Shown: positions 1,201 to 13,924 of the stretch, in pieces
Layout of the letters: the number at the start of each line of letters is the position of its first letter
How positions within the stretch are numbered: the first letter of the stretch is position 1
DNA from: a virus
UHGV virus genome: UHGV-0197770
Length of the DNA stretch: 36,302 nt
Strand: one strand, 5' to 3'
Position numbers and translations under genes: made by a program
Notes under the pieces: generated by a model
The model's database searches: none
Seen by the model: only the letters and a program-made list of their open reading frames with translations
Told to the model about the DNA's origin: nothing

Positions 1201-1833
1201 TCATTCATCGTTCGTTGCACGAACGCGCCTGATCTCCACTCTGGCAATCTGATCTGCTGGAATATAGGTTGCCAGAGCTCCCCAGTACTTATCAACCACG
1301 CCTTTATACTCTTCCCATTCGTTACTGCCTGAAGGGCTGCTGTGCGTGACGTAAAGAACCATATCGCCTTTATTCCCCAGGGTAAACGGACCGTTAGGCC
1401 ACTCTTCAAAGTTCCCTGGCAGCCGTGACATCATACCGGAACCATCGCGAAGAATCACTCTGACCTCGGTAACGCTGAAGCCTGTTTGATCAAACATTGC
1501 CTGCCATGCTGAGCTGGTATCGTCAGACCATGAAACATCATTATTCCACAGTAATCTGTACATCCATTTGCGACCGTACCTGCGCCACCACGCACCGCAT
1601 GTAACGGCACACAGAAGTGCTGGTGGTGTTGCCAGCCAGGCATTCAGACCTGCCCACATAACAGCCTGGTAAGCCATCATTGCTGTCAGGCCAAAAATCA
1701 GCGAAGAAAAAGTCACCTCAATGGGCTTGTGGTGATCCTTCAGTCCCACATTCGCAATAAAATACCCAATATAGCCACTGGTCAGGGTCACCAGTGTTGC
1801 CCATGGCAGATTTAACAACGAAACGTCAAACAT
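1201..1833 (-). CDS. Membrane protein of unknown function (about 3 N-terminal TM helices plus ~130-aa soluble C-terminal domain); terminal accessory gene
   Basis: Start chosen at MFDVSLLNL because GGGAG lies 6 nt upstream; hydrophobic segments LPWATLVTLTSGYIGYFIANVGL and VTFSSLIFGLTAMMAYQAVMWAG; lies downstream of an intrinsic terminator. Confidence 0.6.
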   Translation of the reverse strand: MFDVSLLNLPWATLVTLTSGYIGYFIANVGLKDHHKPIEVTFSSLIFGLTAMMAYQAVMWAGLNAWLATPPALLCAVTCGAWWRRYGRKWMYRLLWNNDVSWSDDTSSAWQAMFDQTGFSVTEVRVILRDGSGMMSRLPGNFEEWPNGPFTLGNKGDMVLYVTHSSPSGSNEWEEYKGVVDKYWGALATYIPADQIARVEIRRVRATNDE

Positions 1834-1871
1834 ATTTTCTCCCTGCATCCTGAATACTAAAGAGAGAGCAT

Positions 1872-1905
1872 AAAAAAAGCACGGTAAGGGGTCTACCGTG
1901 CTTTT
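1872..1905 (-). terminator. Rho-independent terminator ending the leftward early operon (bidirectional hairpin)
   Basis: Stem AGCACGGTA / TACCGTGCT (1878-1886 / 1894-1902), 7-nt loop, flanked by A7 on plus strand (U7 on minus) and TTT on plus. Confidence 0.6.
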
Positions 1906-1947
1906 ATACAATAAGGAGATTTTTGAAAGGACTTTAACAAGCAGGAA

Positions 1948-8748: not shown

Positions 8749-9660
8749 TTATGCCTCCAGCCCGTTAATCTGTGGCGTCGGCTCAGTCAGCCATGAAGGC
8801 GCGACATCGCCTGTTGGCTCGTCCGGCAGGTCAAATGTGGAGCGCAGGCTACGCGCTGTGCTTTCCAGTTGACAGACCAGACCTGCCATGAAGTCTCTGG
8901 GGGTATCAATCATGTTTTCAGCACAATATGCGCACAGTGTCTCAAAAGCGCTGGACAGTCGAACGGCGATGGCAGATTCCGCCTCAACCGCTAATGCTGT
9001 CACTTCCGCCCGCAGCTTCTTAACCTCCTCATCAGGCTCAGGCAGCTGAATACGGGATTTCTTTTCCAGTCTGGTAGAGAGAGAATCAATTTTTTCATTT
9101 TTATCGGCGAGTACGCGCTGTTGTGCTGCGTTGGTTTCGCGCGCTTCGCGCAGGGCCTGGCGAAGTTCGCGTACTGACATGCGATCAACGTCGTCAAGCG
9201 TCAGGCCGGCAACTGTGCCGCCGTCGGCCAGTTCGGCAAGCTCTTCGTCGTCTTCTGTCATTAATTCGAAAAGTTTGGCTTTTCCCAAATGTGCCAACGT
9301 TGGCACATTTGGTTTCAGCGCCGGGGATAAGTATTTTGTCGATGCTTGCATCATTCTCACAGATGTCCGGTATGCCAGCCCCAACTCACTTTCAAGAATC
9401 TTTATAAACTCCCCGTGTGGTTCATTTTCCTTAAGGATTATCAGCCGCTTACCTGCCTCCAGCATGGCCTCAGCGCTCTGTGCCATATAAAAGCGTGCCT
9501 CATGGACAACACGATCGCGCTCATAAGGCAGACCATCGCCGAACTGTTGCATGATTTCCATGCGATGCTGTGTCATGGCGTTTAGACTGACATTGAGATC
9601 ATCCGACAGCGGTACCTCGACGTTCAGTTCAGTGCTAACCGGTGATTTGGTGCGTCCCAT
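8749..9660 (-). CDS. Hypothetical early protein (303 aa), acidic coiled-coil rich
   Basis: AAGGAG RBS 6 nt upstream; between regulators and transposase; no family recognised. Confidence 0.5.
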   Translation of the reverse strand: MGRTKSPVSTELNVEVPLSDDLNVSLNAMTQHRMEIMQQFGDGLPYERDRVVHEARFYMAQSAEAMLEAGKRLIILKENEPHGEFIKILESELGLAYRTSVRMMQASTKYLSPALKPNVPTLAHLGKAKLFELMTEDDEELAELADGGTVAGLTLDDVDRMSVRELRQALREARETNAAQQRVLADKNEKIDSLSTRLEKKSRIQLPEPDEEVKKLRAEVTALAVEAESAIAVRLSSAFETLCAYCAENMIDTPRDFMAGLVCQLESTARSLRSTFDLPDEPTGDVAPSWLTEPTPQINGLEA

Positions 9661-9670
9661 TGATTACTCC

Positions 9671-9979
9671 TTACAAACGACTACCTGAAATAACACGTTG
9701 GTTGATTTCGTTAATGCGATCCTGTGCACGTGCCATCTCGTTACTGTGGGCCATGGCGATCTGCAGCAACTGGATGCCTGGTGCGAAACGCCCGTTTTCT
9801 AGTTTCAGAGCCAACCCTTCTTCAATGAGCGTGTTAAGTGCCCGGTTGATGTTTGCCGGTGATTCGTGCAGTGCAACCGCTAGTTCCCCGTTAGAAACAC
9901 CGTTCAAAGCGTGGCCACGTAAGGCCTTAAGAACGCGCAAAATACGGATACCTGAGCTTGATGTATTTGGTTTATTCAT
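9671..9979 (-). CDS. Winged-helix DNA-binding regulator (102 aa)
   Basis: ILRVLKALRGHALNGVSNGELAVALHESPANINRALNTLIEEGLA looks like a wHTH; AAGGAGG RBS; ATGA coupling with Ner-like gene. Confidence 0.5.
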   Translation of the reverse strand: MNKPNTSSSGIRILRVLKALRGHALNGVSNGELAVALHESPANINRALNTLIEEGLALKLENGRFAPGIQLLQIAMAHSNEMARAQDRINEINQRVISGSRL

Positions 9980-10200
9980 GACGCCTCCTTAAGGATACCG
10001 GGGGTAACTTCTTTACCTATTGCAACCGATAGATCTCGCAAAATCCGATAAGTCAAACGACCGCGAGGTAGTTCACTTTTACCAGCCCAGCGACTGACTG
10101 CCTGGGTGACTGTTCGTGGTTCATAGCCCGCGTTAAGCGCGAACTGGCGCAAGCTACTGCCTCGTTCAACCAGCCGTGCCCGAACTTGTTGTTTGTTCAT
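9976..10200 (-). CDS. Ner-like DNA-binding protein (first gene of early operon)
   Basis: 74 aa from ATG (GTG 6 nt upstream also possible); HTH LRQFALNAGYEPRTVTQAVSR resembles the Mu Ner family; divergent from repressor. Confidence 0.55.
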   Translation of the reverse strand: MNKQQVRARLVERGSSLRQFALNAGYEPRTVTQAVSRWAGKSELPRGRLTYRILRDLSVAIGKEVTPGILKEAS

Positions 10201-10288
10201 ATGCACCGTGTTCCTGTTAGGTTATGATGTACTCTATTGGGTCTATTGTACACACCCAAATGAGTGTGTCAAATTGAGATATGTTCAA
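10201..10288. promoter_or_regulatory. Divergent promoter/operator region between early operon and repressor gene
   Basis: Inverted repeats TGTAC-N15-GTACA (10228-10252, containing tandem TCTATTG half-sites) and CACAC-N8-GTGTG (10251-10268). Confidence 0.5.
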
Positions 10289-10696
10289 ATGAGTACAAAA
10301 GAGAGATTGCGTGAAGTGATGGATGCTAATGGCATGACAATAAAGGCATTATCTGACTTATCAAAAATTCCATATCGCTCACTTCAAAACTATTTGCGTG
10401 GAGAGAGAGAACCAAACGCAGAGGCTCTTGTTGCGCTAAGTACCCATTTGGGTGTATCAATCGATTGGCTACTTACCGGTAAAGAACATATTCCATCTAA
10501 AGAAATTGTTGCTGTACCAACACAACATCAATTCAGCCCGTCAGACCTTAAAATGCTTGAACTTCTAAACCAGTTAGATCCTGAGGTTCGGCGAGATCTC
10601 ATGCGAGGCGCTGAAGAAAAACAGCGTGTGATTGAGATGGAAAAACAACTGAAGGAATTATCCGCAACGATTGAGCGGTTAAAAAATGTGGGTTAA
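10289..10696 (+). CDS. XRE-family HTH repressor (phage c-repressor candidate) with C-terminal coiled coil
   Basis: ATG at 10289 preferred over upstream TTG; HTH LSDLSKIPYRSLQNYLRGEREPNAEALVALSTHLGVSIDWLLTGK; divergent from early operon. Confidence 0.65.
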   Translation: MSTKERLREVMDANGMTIKALSDLSKIPYRSLQNYLRGEREPNAEALVALSTHLGVSIDWLLTGKEHIPSKEIVAVPTQHQFSPSDLKMLELLNQLDPEVRRDLMRGAEEKQRVIEMEKQLKELSATIERLKNVG

Positions 10697-10766
10697 TGTG
10701 TTCCTAACGAGAACATATAGCAGAAATTATTTGCCATTAAGCAATAAAAAATAAGGTGGATAGCCA

Positions 10767-11774
10767 ATGTCTGAGCAGACCATTGAAGTTAAACACGTTG
10801 TAGTTCACATTTTAGACAAACAACAAAATGGAGACGCTTCTGAGAGATTGAGTCCTGAAGAAGGTCTAGTTACTGAAGCCTCTCAGCGCCTTATAAACGA
10901 TATTTGTGCAAAATATGCAGGACGCACAGGTAAAGGTTATGGCTATTTTGAAGGCGATACGGATAACTATCCTATGGAACGAATGGCTGGGGACTTTCTC
11001 GAAGGTGTTGATGATTTCTACCAAAGTTCCTGCCGAATGATGCATCACCTGACGGAACGTTCTCAGCGAGAAAACATGGCTACTGGTGGTTATGTTCTTT
11101 TTGCAAATATCGTGATAGGACACAATGAACACCTGTTGATAGCTATTGTAAGCGCTACCATTGGGTCCACTGTCACAGATGATTTTAACATCCAAGATAG
11201 TACCTATCTTGATATTGCTAAGCTGCGTATGGCTGGGCGCATTGACTTAACCGCGTGGGAAAGTGGCGCAGAGCGCTATATCAGTTTTCTTAAGGGGCAA
11301 GGTAATGTTTCAAACTATTTTAAACAGTTCCTAGGCTGTAATGATGTCTTAATCGCCAAACGAGAGTCTGAAAAGTTACGTGACGTTTTAAAAGCATTTG
11401 CGGCAGAGAAAGGACTTGACGGCGCTGAAAAAGATGCATTTCTTAAGAGTGCGTTTGAACACTTACATGCACTAAGTAAGGCTGGTGAACCACTTAGTCT
11501 TGAAACCCTTGTTAATGCCATTTGGCCCCAGGCTCCCGAGGAGTTATCTGGTAAACTTGCTGCTGAAGAGTTGGAGTTATCGGATGGCTTCGTTCCTGAT
11601 GGTCGAGTCATTCGGGCTCTGGTATCTTTTAAAGGCAAGTCTAAATATTGGGAACTTAAGTTTGACCGGGAAGGGAAAACTGAAGGCTATATTGATTATG
11701 ATCCGGAAACAAATATTATCACCCTACGTAATGTACCTGAAGAATTTAGGGAAATGTGGATGACTGAGGTTTAA
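10767..11774 (+). CDS. NdpA/YejK-family nucleoid-associated-protein homologue (phage-borne paralogue); candidate sensor of a two-gene defence cassette
   Basis: 335 aa (same length as E. coli YejK); blocks GGYVLFANIV..HLLIAIV, YLDIAKLRMAGRIDLTAWESG..ERYISFLKG...FLG and C-terminal NIITLRNVPEEFRE align to my recollection of YejK; AAGGTGGA RBS; AT-rich. Confidence 0.6.
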   Translation: MSEQTIEVKHVVVHILDKQQNGDASERLSPEEGLVTEASQRLINDICAKYAGRTGKGYGYFEGDTDNYPMERMAGDFLEGVDDFYQSSCRMMHHLTERSQRENMATGGYVLFANIVIGHNEHLLIAIVSATIGSTVTDDFNIQDSTYLDIAKLRMAGRIDLTAWESGAERYISFLKGQGNVSNYFKQFLGCNDVLIAKRESEKLRDVLKAFAAEKGLDGAEKDAFLKSAFEHLHALSKAGEPLSLETLVNAIWPQAPEELSGKLAAEELELSDGFVPDGRVIRALVSFKGKSKYWELKFDREGKTEGYIDYDPETNIITLRNVPEEFREMWMTEV

Positions 11775-11776
11775 TC

Positions 11777-12982
11777 GTGGCGATTTCATTTGAGATGCTG
11801 ACAGCTCTGTATCGTCGTATGGAATTCCAAGAGGGGTTTCGTGTCGGTTCGCTGTTGCTCTTAGATCAGTCCGATTGTGATCTGGTTGATACTTTGCTTG
11901 ATGATCCTCGTGAATATGGTCTTTCTATTGATACAGGCACTATCGCTCCAGGTAACACGATCATCCTACGTGTGACGTCACCACGGAGTGGACTGGGACT
12001 TGTGTTTTCCACCCATGAAAAATTGCTAAATGCTCCAAAGCATCAGTGCCTTGAGCCAGCTAATTACTTCATCCTAGAAACAAAATTTCGTAATGATGAT
12101 GAAGATATCCCCGTTTTCATCAGCAACTACCGGAAGATTCTCGAGTTCGTTAACCTGCTAAAAGAGGCCGCGGCCTACTTTGATAACTCAACTTGTCAGT
12201 TAGTTTTTCTGAAAAAAGAAGTTATCAAGCTATTACCGCACTTCGCTGCAGAAAATGTACAAAATTTGCAAAGGGAGTATCTTGATAACCTTATAGCTTG
12301 TTTCAATGATGATACCCATAAGGATCAGAAGCTAGATATTCTGATTGAAAGTATTCAAGCAGTTAGTGATGGAATTGATTCACCTCTAGTATTCGCTTAT
12401 TTACTGGACAATATTCAGCGTCTGCATGAAAAGTTTCTGAAAGGGTATCGTATCTACTCTTCTGGATTCTCTTATGACAAAGTAATGGATCAACTGCGTG
12501 CTGCAAAAGTCGAAGAAATGGGTAAAATCCACAAAGCGTTTTCAGATATCCAGAACCATATACTTGGCATTCCTGTTGCCTCTGTTATCGTAGCTACCCA
12601 ATTCAAAGTGGCTACGAAATGGTCAGGCCAAGGGATAACAAACACAATAATTCTTCTGGGATGCATTTTTGCTGCAACGTTAATCTGGCTGGCACTTTCG
12701 AACCAGATGCAATCTATAAAGGCCTTAGGCGAAGAAATTGAATACAAAGAAAAACAGATTAATAAGGAATATTCCTTCATTAAAGATGACGTGGCTGGTG
12801 TATTTAGCAGTATTTCTGCGCGACTAGACACGCAGAAACGTACGTTCTGGATTATACGTGGTGTTCTAGTTATGGGAATTATTACCGCTATCACTGTTTA
12901 TTTTTGGTACACAAAACCAGCCCTTGACTTCATGCAGTACTTGATTCACTGCATGAAGTCTTACTATTCGGTCAAAAGTTGA
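11777..12982 (+). CDS. Protein with ~270-aa soluble N-terminal domain and two C-terminal TM helices; candidate membrane effector
   Basis: GTG start 2 nt after upstream stop with GAGG RBS (coupled); hydrophobic helices ITNTIILLGCIFAATLIWLAL and FWIIRGVLVMGIITAITVYFWY; no family recognised. Confidence 0.55.
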   Translation: MAISFEMLTALYRRMEFQEGFRVGSLLLLDQSDCDLVDTLLDDPREYGLSIDTGTIAPGNTIILRVTSPRSGLGLVFSTHEKLLNAPKHQCLEPANYFILETKFRNDDEDIPVFISNYRKILEFVNLLKEAAAYFDNSTCQLVFLKKEVIKLLPHFAAENVQNLQREYLDNLIACFNDDTHKDQKLDILIESIQAVSDGIDSPLVFAYLLDNIQRLHEKFLKGYRIYSSGFSYDKVMDQLRAAKVEEMGKIHKAFSDIQNHILGIPVASVIVATQFKVATKWSGQGITNTIILLGCIFAATLIWLALSNQMQSIKALGEEIEYKEKQINKEYSFIKDDVAGVFSSISARLDTQKRTFWIIRGVLVMGIITAITVYFWYTKPALDFMQYLIHCMKSYYSVKS

Positions 12983-13742
12983 GGATAATGAGTTCCTTCT
13001 TGCGACTGGATTTGCCAGTGATCTTGAGGTTGTAGCTGATATCAACCGACTGAATATTTAGACCGTTGAATGCCTGCCGCATTTCCGGGATATCGTTCAC
13101 CGATATAATCATCTTCCCTTTGATCCTGCGTGCTAAATCTGCCATATGATCATAATTTTCTAGTCCGAACTCCACACCATAACCTTCCGTTCCCCAGTAT
13201 GGAGGGTCACAGTAGAACAACGTATGCGGGCGATCATATCGTTCTATGCACTGTTGCCAGTCCATGTGTTCTATGACCGTTCTGGAAAGCCGCAGGTGTG
13301 CCGCTGACAGTTCTTCTTCAATACGCAGCAGGTTGAAGCGTGGCGGGGATATGGTGGAGGTACCAAAGCTGTGCTCCGCCACCTTGCCCCCAAACGCCTG
13401 CTTCTGAAGGTAGTAGAACCGTGCTGCACGCTGGATATCCGTCAGTGTTTCTTCCGGGGTGATCTGCAGCCATTTGTAGATCTGCCGGCTGACCAGCGCC
13501 CATTTGAACTGGCGTACAAATTCTTCCAGATGATGTTTTACCACCCGATACAGGTTCACCAGCTCACCGTTGATATCATTAATGACTTCGATCTTGCCGG
13601 GTACCTTAAGAAAATAGAGCGCTGCTGCCCCACAAAACGGCTCCACATAACATTCATGCGCCGGAAACAGCGGCAGGATGTGTTTTGCAAGGCGGCGTTT
13701 GCCACCAATCCATGGAACGATGGGTAATGTCTGCATTTTCAT
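12972..13742 (-). CDS. Dam-family N6-adenine DNA methyltransferase (orphan)
   Basis: WIGGKRRL, EPFCGAAALYF and DPPY motifs parallel E. coli Dam; no adjacent restriction endonuclease; 3-prime end overlaps the convergent upstream gene by 11 nt. Confidence 0.8.
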   Translation of the reverse strand: MKMQTLPIVPWIGGKRRLAKHILPLFPAHECYVEPFCGAAALYFLKVPGKIEVINDINGELVNLYRVVKHHLEEFVRQFKWALVSRQIYKWLQITPEETLTDIQRAARFYYLQKQAFGGKVAEHSFGTSTISPPRFNLLRIEEELSAAHLRLSRTVIEHMDWQQCIERYDRPHTLFYCDPPYWGTEGYGVEFGLENYDHMADLARRIKGKMIISVNDIPEMRQAFNGLNIQSVDISYNLKITGKSSRKKELIILNF

Positions 13743-13924
13743 AATCTGTAAGCCTTTTACAATTATAAAAAATATGGCAGGCTAGTCTGGTCTCGCGAGA
13801 CTGACTGAACCTTGGTCGGCTCACAGCGCATTCCTGTGGGGCGATGGCCAGCCCGGTGTTCGGGTACCGGGCTGGTCGTTCTTTCAAAGCCATCATGCAG
13901 TGCACGTTTACATCTTCACTATTA

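Follow-up and report, generated by a model that had tools for sequence, protein, structure and literature searches.

A repressor-linked gene pair in a Mu-like Escherichia coli prophage is probably a divergent member of the YejK-like nucleoid-associated protein and membrane-effector defense class

Introduction

What do two translationally coupled genes that lie directly behind the repressor gene of a Mu-like transposable prophage do for their carrier? The question is raised by UHGV-0197770, a 36,302-nt stretch of DNA that we analyzed at full length and refer to as the window. Its gene 1 (335 aa, ATG start) and gene 2 (401 aa, GTG start), as delimited by open reading frame (ORF) calling, together form what we call the cassette. 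An initial annotation had described the cassette as a candidate Rex-like, two-gene defense system that joins a DNA-binding sensor to a membrane effector, had named Kiwa as its nearest architecture, and had presented it as a novel system that fits no named family, while adding that profile hidden Markov model (HMM) searches placing both genes in a described system would speak against it. We find that the pair is probably a prophage-borne, divergent member of a defense class in which a YejK-like nucleoid-associated protein (NAP) is combined with a membrane effector, the class to which DS-1 and type II PANGU belong. The sensor-effector design proposed earlier is thus retained, on the strength of homology to DS-1 and of a layout matching type II PANGU, and the claim of novelty is given up.

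Results

Homology of Both Genes to DS-1

DS-1 (working id D390) is a two-gene accessory system of E. coli that came out of DefensePredictor (Science 2026; bioRxiv 2025; PMC13092281). It consists of DS-1A (WP_000355468.1, 391 aa), in which a zinc ribbon precedes an NA37 domain, and DS-1B (WP_000150292.1, 404 aa); its clone in MG1655 was confirmed as defensive in replication, and the screen gave -log efficiency of plating values of 7.6 for Bas1, 2.7 for Bas26, 1.7 for Bas3 and T3, and ∼1 for T5 and T7 (PMC13092281). Gene 1 matches the NCBIfam model NF053868 (DS1_1_antiphage, "nucleoid-associated anti-phage protein") over residues 33-258 with an E value of 1.4e-17 and 63.7 bits, and gene 2 matches NF053869 (DS1_2_antiphage) over residues 74-366 with an E value of 3e-21 and 75.9 bits. 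HMM searches therefore do place both genes beside a described system. The second match is not confined to this protein: 86/86 sampled gene 2 family members match DS1_2 (best E 3e-29). BLASTP against the published DS-1A and DS-1B gives E values of 8e-9 and 6e-10, respectively, with ∼23% identity in each case, and profile comparison with hhalign gives probabilities of 97% for gene 1 and 96% for gene 2, the latter with an E value of 4e-9 against DS-1B.

The likeness extends to layout. In both systems the NA37 gene comes first and is followed by a gene for a ∼400-aa membrane protein, and the gap between the two genes is 2 nt in both (DS-1 occupies 220602-221777 and 221780-222994). The conserved juxtamembrane motif of gene 2 and its pattern of hydrophobic segments, described below, are common to DS-1B. 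We nevertheless rejected the pair as a DS-1 equivalog, given that both scores are below the curated equivalog cut-offs (330 bits for NF053868 and 315 bits for NF053869) and that the zinc ribbon is absent; by these comparisons, the pair is a sister family of DS-1 and not DS-1 itself. An NA37 protein 40% identical to gene 1 is included in the DefensePredictor list of predicted novel defense genes. The RefSeq proteins found at coordinates identical to those of gene 1 (WP_000003711.1, labeled "nucleoid-associated protein") and gene 2 (WP_001007984.1, labeled "hypothetical protein") were not found in the DefensePredictor supplements, several tables of which were covered in truncated form, or in the other papers searched.

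Similarity in Design to Type II PANGU

PANGU systems are bicistronic operons of a YejK-like NAP and an effector, reported in an April 2026 preprint (bioRxiv 10.64898/2026.04.06.716658). In type II, the partner of the NAP Pag2A is Pag2B, an effector with an acidic DNA-mimic (DMK) domain at its N-terminus and a transmembrane domain at its C-terminus; the type II system of E. coli "upec" protects against T4 by abortive infection, both genes are needed, and T4 endonuclease II mutants escape (bioRxiv 10.64898/2026.04.06.716658). Upon infection Pag2A-GFP leaves the nucleoid, and Pag2A binds the N-domain of Pag2B with a dissociation constant (KD) of 19 nM (bioRxiv 10.64898/2026.04.06.716658).

The cassette shares this design in several respects. 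Gene 1 encodes a YejK-like NA37 protein by both sequence and structure (PF04245, E 1e-80; Foldseek against 9be2, E 5e-21). The same-operon partner criterion for PANGU is <40 bp, and the corresponding distance is 2 nt here and -20 to +13 nt in 51 related loci. Gene 2 has C-terminal hydrophobic segments at aa 262-280, 288-309, and 357-377, which lie in long helices of its model, and an acidic N-terminal region (aa 1-212, charge -14, isoelectric point (pI) 4.6), which is consistent with the published description of the Pag2B DMK domain. Both families are widespread and horizontally mobile. They differ in setting, in that the PANGU survey was anchored on defense islands and the word prophage is absent from the preprint, whereas the present pair belongs to a Mu-like prophage and lies in its immunity region; they differ also in the basic patch of the NAP N-domain, which is not conserved in gene 1. 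Homology of both genes to the validated DS-1, taken with a design that matches type II PANGU, supports the earlier reading of the pair as an accessory two-gene defense cassette that probably acts by abortive infection.

The NA37 Protein Encoded by Gene 1

The annotation of gene 1 as YejK/NdpA-like along its full length is confirmed. The Pfam NA37 family (PF04245) covers residues 12-327, E. coli YejK (PDB 9be2) aligns over residues 4-330 with an E value of 7e-30, and phrog_3767 is matched with an E value of 7e-117. In a Foldseek search with an AlphaFold2 (AF2) model of mean predicted local distance difference test (pLDDT) 87, YejK 9be2 is the top match (27% identity) and the only significant structural match. 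YejK itself is a dimeric, sequence-independent DNA clamp (PMC11229321). Gene 1 has the full-length, two-domain NA37 fold of YejK and, like it, encodes a protein that is acidic overall (pI 4.9); unlike YejK, it is prophage-encoded and has an obligate partner, and the YejK residues R173, R176, and K177 are not conserved in it. The possibility that gene 1 is simply a housekeeping YejK was rejected because it scores 186.2 bits against the curated 341-bit equivalog cut-off of NF001557 and because it is encoded in a prophage cargo slot, which carries it in 19/5426 complete E. coli genomes.

The Membrane Protein Encoded by Gene 2

No Pfam family matches gene 2, which does match phrog_5023 (E 2e-142). 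In its AF2 model (pLDDT 80), residues 1-160 form an alpha/beta domain; a helical region comes next, and the hydrophobic segments lie in the four long helices after it. The soluble N-terminus and the two C-terminal hydrophobic helices that had been noted before are present; a third hydrophobic segment, at aa 262-280, had not been noted; it is weaker and extremely conserved. Eight Lys/Arg residues lie in the 47-residue loop that separates the last two helices and one in the 7-residue loop after the first; by the positive-inside rule, a cytoplasmic N-terminus and three membrane spans are thus the favored topology.

The two halves of the protein differ in charge. The N-terminal region is strongly acidic, as given above, against a family median charge of -8, and the membrane part has a pI of 9.25. 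By its likeness to the published description of the Pag2B DMK domain, aa 1-212 is a candidate partner-binding, DNA-mimic-like domain. Conservation is concentrated elsewhere, in a block (aa 223-280) made up of a juxtamembrane helix and the first hydrophobic segment, with the motif GY..F.SGFSYDK..DQLR.AK.EE.GKIHK.FSDIQNQILGIPVATVIVATQ.K. Within this block the mean frequency of the commonest residue is 0.79 vs 0.24-0.54 in the rest of the protein. Residues that do not vary in the family include P266, T274, K277, N309, Q310, E320, and R349.

Linkage and Mobility of the Pair

A search with gene 2 only returned 166 clusters at 90% identity, and an exhaustive profile search returned 1297 representatives at 50% identity, 406 of them with E ≤ 1e-30; nearly all are ∼400 aa long. 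Loci were then scanned in one genome per species with gene 2 alone as the query, which gave 54 loci from gamma-, beta-, and alpha-proteobacteria and a few odd metagenome-assembled genomes. An NA37 gene lies directly upstream on the same strand in 51 of the 54, and in 51/51 the distance from the NA37 stop to a gene 2 start is between -20 and +13 nt, an overlap of 8 or 11 nt being the commonest. The three exceptions, on a Cupriavidus plasmid and contigs (L046-L048, 7992-8618), consist of a 208-aa ORF that matches gene 2 residues 191-392 only, with no NA37 gene nearby. This ORF adjoins an oppositely oriented, unrelated ORF and an ORF for a large multi-pass membrane protein; we considered a new fusion and rejected it in favor of a 5′-truncated remnant beside unrelated genes. 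The linkage of gene 1 to gene 2 is far beyond chance, and the co-occurrence of the pair outside this phage, which the initial annotation had left to be looked for, holds across three proteobacterial classes.

The elements that carry the pair are diverse. A Mu-like backbone is common to six or seven of the loci only. In lambdoid prophages of Salmonella and Citrobacter the pair is placed between the antiterminator Q and holin genes on the opposite strand, the classical moron position, and in Paraburkholderia it is in an island with genes for an Mrr-type nuclease and MazE. A Pfam census of three genes on each side at 25 loci gave phage integrases (6), TniQ (3), and genes of integrative and conjugative elements (ICEs; DUF3158, AcaB, DUF2857, and TrbI), along with Q and holin genes, restriction endonucleases, AAA_15/AAA_21, and ResIII. 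The pair thus has the signature of a self-contained accessory module of mobile elements, found in prophage moron slots, ICEs, and islands.

The Citrobacter freundii prophage loci (L057-L060) have a defense-rich cargo region: a gene with a colicin domain and an SLFN/AlbA_2 protein gene lie ∼4-9 kb from the pair, and in one of the strains a reverse transcriptase adjoins an SMC/AAA_15 ATPase.

Position and Expression of the Cassette

Coordinates are collected in Table 1. What had been reported of the layout is borne out at each point: the two abutting ORFs are joined by a TAA stop, 2 nt, and a GTG start, with GAGG 8-11 nt upstream of the GTG; the cassette is co-oriented with, and directly behind, an XRE-type repressor gene; and the block is AT-rich relative to the phage backbone (GC 0.38-0.45 over 10500-13000 vs 0.55-0.61 for most of the phage). 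A scan of the 70-nt spacer before gene 1 revealed neither a terminator-like site nor a strong promoter, so that transcription of the cassette by read-through from the repressor promoter is plausible.

The comparison with Rex had been based on this arrangement. Lambda RexAB likewise follows the repressor gene immediately and in the same orientation, comprises two genes with a membrane component, and is proposed to act by abortive infection. Its sensor, RexA, does not belong to the NA37 family. We detected no sequence relationship to RexAB, the sole PADLOC match for either protein being a weak one to KwaA, and the term Rex-like is thus apt for position only.

Table 1. Coordinates of the cassette, its parts, and the adjoining features in the window
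Feature	Coordinates (strand)	Description	Evidence
XRE/CI-type repressor gene	10289..10696 (+)	135 aa; RefSeq WP_001513990.1	HTH_3 E 3e-12; Phage_CI_repr E 1.5e-6
Spacer between repressor gene and gene 1	10697..10766 (+)	70 nt; Shine-Dalgarno AAGGTGG at 10753-10759	Read from sequence
Variable cargo slot	10717..12990 (+)	Repressor stop to dam stop; filled by the cassette here	
Gene 1	10767..11774 (+)	YejK/NdpA-like nucleoid-associated protein (NA37 family); presumed sensor, counterpart of DS-1A/Pag2A	
Coupling junction	11766..11776 (+)	GAGG 11766-11769, gene 1 TAA stop 11772-11774, 2 nt, gene 2 GTG	Read from sequence
Gene 2	11777..12982 (+)	Membrane protein; presumed effector, counterpart of DS-1B/Pag2B	
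Gene 2 aa 1-212	11777..12412 (+)	Acidic soluble N-terminal region; alpha/beta domain, then helices	
Gene 2 aa 223-280	12443..12616 (+)	Most conserved block of the family; includes the weaker hydrophobic segment aa 262-280	
Gene 2 aa 288-309	12638..12703 (+)	Strongly hydrophobic transmembrane helix	Kyte-Doolittle 19-residue maximum 2.33; helical in model
Gene 2 aa 357-377	12845..12907 (+)	Strongly hydrophobic transmembrane helix	Kyte-Doolittle maximum 1.95; helical in model
Dam-type adenine methyltransferase gene	12972..13742 (-)	Convergent with the cassette	PF02086 E 7e-28; PADLOC MTase_II E 4e-115

A Variable Cargo Slot in the Prophage

The window is a segment of the E. coli chromosome in which host dinB (DNA polymerase IV, 112-852) is followed by the Mu-like transposable prophage. 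The left border between host and prophage thus falls somewhere around 850-1200. Other strains carry the same prophage elsewhere in the chromosome, as is to be expected for a transposable phage. The early operon on the minus strand encodes Mor, GemA, Gam, a MuB-like AAA protein, a 589-aa DDE transposase, a DUF3102 protein, and two small helix-turn-helix proteins; the lysis, head, and tail genes are on the plus strand, and the immunity region is between both arms. A near-consensus sigma-70 promoter candidate (10272..10245, minus strand, TTGACA-16-TACAAT, 11/12 matches) faces the early operon. Two inverted repeats, 10228-10239/10286-10297 and 10252-10265/10442-10455, could be operators but are short and unconvincing. 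The prophage may have a second cargo gene in a 236-aa ORF (1201-1911, minus strand) at the far end of the early operon, beside the host junction; the local GC is low (0.46-0.49), and the ORF gave no match in Pfam or PADLOC.

The borders of the 2.3-kb slot that holds the cassette are seen in relatives that lack it. In the cassette-less E. coli HH107 (L063), homology to the window ends at 10716 and resumes at 12991, and the intervening sequence is an unrelated 175-aa gene; Klebsiella phage KP12 (L064) likewise has an unrelated 175-aa gene within the same homology borders. An identical cassette is found in the 19 of 5426 complete E. coli genomes mentioned above, at scattered chromosomal positions, and a further 44 E. 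coli genomes match the flanks only. Conversely, in the heteroimmune Brenneria and Pectobacterium prophages of the same type (L002 and L003), the repressor regions differ and the cassette is kept from 10740 onward. The mobile unit is therefore the two genes with a ∼27-nt leader, and in this setting it carries no promoter.

The alternative cargo, WP_001228474.1 (175 aa, L063 3592-4119), occurs in two phage records as well as in the 44 E. coli genomes. Pfam and PADLOC searches with it gave no match; it may be another lysogeny-expressed accessory or defense gene. At the other end of the slot, the 3′ ends of gene 2 and dam overlap by 11 nt (12972-12982) with no terminator-like structure between them, and transcription from both sides would thus collide.

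A decayed copy of the prophage region is present in S. Typhi CP029870.1 (L066), which we compared over window positions 9396-13814. Deletions corresponding to 9396-10825, 10929-11323, and 11848-13814 have removed the repressor, gene 2, and dam, and what is left includes a 198-aa NA37 fragment (P0140) that matches parts of gene 1 at 100% identity and for which the assembly collection lists 2702 blocks.

Discussion

How the Pair May Work

If the pair acts as its relatives do, a sequence of events can be proposed for a lysogen. The repressor transcript would read through into the translationally coupled gene 1 and gene 2. The gene 1 product would reside on the chromosome as a YejK-like dimeric clamp, as has been demonstrated for YejK and for Pag1A and Pag2A, and the gene 2 product would be in the inner membrane with its acidic N-domain in the cytoplasm, the arrangement that hydropathy and the positive-inside rule suggest. 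When a lytic phage degrades the host DNA, the freed NAP would bind the acidic N-domain of the effector, by analogy with Pag2A and Pag2B, for which this binding was observed. The conserved juxtamembrane/transmembrane module would then turn toxic, most likely by permeabilizing or depolarizing the membrane, such that the infection would be aborted and the lysogen population protected. A Mu-like phage needs intact host DNA for its replicative transposition, and its own development would thus not be expected to trigger the system.

Several points weigh against this reading of the pair. Our argument for a defense role is one of homology and architecture, and for type II PANGU in particular it is one of architecture, drawn from a source that is a preprint. 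The distance to DS-1 is considerable, with scores of 63.7 vs 330 bits and 75.9 vs 315 bits and ∼23% identity; moreover, DS-1A begins with a CxxC...CxxC zinc ribbon (aa 1-41) and its NA37 domain starts at residue 42, whereas in gene 1 the NA37 domain starts at residue 12 and no cysteine motif is present. DNA binding by YejK is lost in the R173A/R176A/K177A mutant and weakened in R276A/R280A/K284A (PMC11229321). Gene 1 has Q178/gap/N180 in place of the first of these clusters, which varies across the subfamily, and the second, in the C-domain, is partly kept (R280, R283, K289, and K291); nucleoid binding by gene 1 is therefore plausible from its sequence but not guaranteed. No significant match to the gene 2 model was found among solved structures, which makes the effector activity named above a guess. 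Finally, expression in the lysogen is deduced solely from the absence of signals in the spacer.

The missing basic cluster in the N-domain, together with the presumed wiring of the cassette to the repressor transcript of a transposing phage, also leads us to a more speculative idea: the Mu-like-prophage branch may sense a particular DNA state or a phage protein in place of bulk release from a degraded nucleoid, which would set it apart from PANGU sensing. We consider this unlikely. If true, it would provide a natural, lysogeny-expressed model for the activity of membrane modules of the Pag2B/DS-1B type.

Other Readings of the Pair

Kiwa, composed of KwaA and KwaB, is also a two-gene system of a membrane protein and a non-specific DNA-binding protein (PMC11785009). 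A Kiwa-like mechanism would have the membrane protein sense phage attachment or DNA entry and license its DNA-binding partner to coat the phage DNA and block replication, with no abortive infection. The parts list is the same, aa 262-394 of gene 2 weakly match the PADLOC model of KwaA (E 8e-5), and KwaB structures, at ranks 7, 8, and 12, are among the first non-YejK Foldseek matches of gene 1. However, the gene order is opposite, and KwaA has four transmembrane helices and no large soluble domain. We rejected gene 2 as a KwaA because its match is confined to the hydrophobic region and is found for only 3-4 of the 86 family members, and KwaA is absent from the structural matches of the gene 2 model. 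Gene 1 was likewise rejected as a KwaB, as the Foldseek comparison with 9mtn gives an E value of 0.34 and a probability of 0.12 and neither Pfam nor PADLOC yields a KwaB (DUF4868) match. Kiwa as the nearest architecture, proposed in the initial annotation, is accordingly abandoned, and we regard a Kiwa-like mode of action as improbable.

The pair could instead be regulatory, with gene 1 as a phage-encoded nucleoid-associated regulator that tunes prophage or host expression, for example by counter-silencing H-NS, and gene 2 as an accessory, without any role in defense. There is a documented precedent in NdpA2 of the ICE PAPI-1, an NA37 protein on a mobile element that counter-silences H-NS together with TprA; two of the related loci are in ICEs of the PAPI-1/ICEclc type, marked by DUF3158 and DUF2857, and the cassette in the window lies in the immunity region beside the repressor. 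The partner of NdpA2, however, is a ribbon-helix-helix regulator and not a membrane protein like gene 2, and the membrane partner is kept in 51/54 loci whatever the host element. The cassette is also dispensable for the phage, because the 44 flank-only genomes have the same backbone with other cargo, and gene 1 and gene 2 each have a homolog in DS-1, whose clone protects MG1655 by itself. Taken together, these observations leave a purely regulatory role a distinctly poor prospect.

A membrane function for the phage itself, as a holin-like or lysis-timing accessory or as a superinfection-exclusion protein that blocks DNA injection, would suit a gene 2 membrane protein whose pair adjoins the holin-lysozyme cassette in lambdoid prophages and has a holin gene two genes downstream in the window phage, but it is very improbable, as the lambdoid pair is on the strand opposite the late lysis operon, the pair is not restricted to phages (ICEs, Tn7-like elements, and islands have it too), and gene 2 is always coupled to a cytoplasmic NA37 protein.

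Implications

The class to which we assign the pair was described in 2025-2026, and the pair opens no new category. Under the reading that we prefer, a YejK-like NAP with a membrane effector, the class is carried as lysogeny-linked cargo, both behind the repressor of a Mu-like phage and in the Q-holin moron slot of lambdoid phages, positions that are classically used for host-protecting genes. What is new here is these immunity-region and moron-slot contexts, the near-absolute linkage of the two genes, the size and core of the effector family, and the loss of the N-domain basic patch of YejK. A natural genetic context is thereby provided for the effector, along with a large, diverse family (1297 representatives at 50% identity) with a sharply conserved juxtamembrane/transmembrane block. 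For annotation, the genes now labeled "nucleoid-associated protein" and "hypothetical protein" that stand together in hundreds of enterobacterial prophages can be marked as probable defense pairs.

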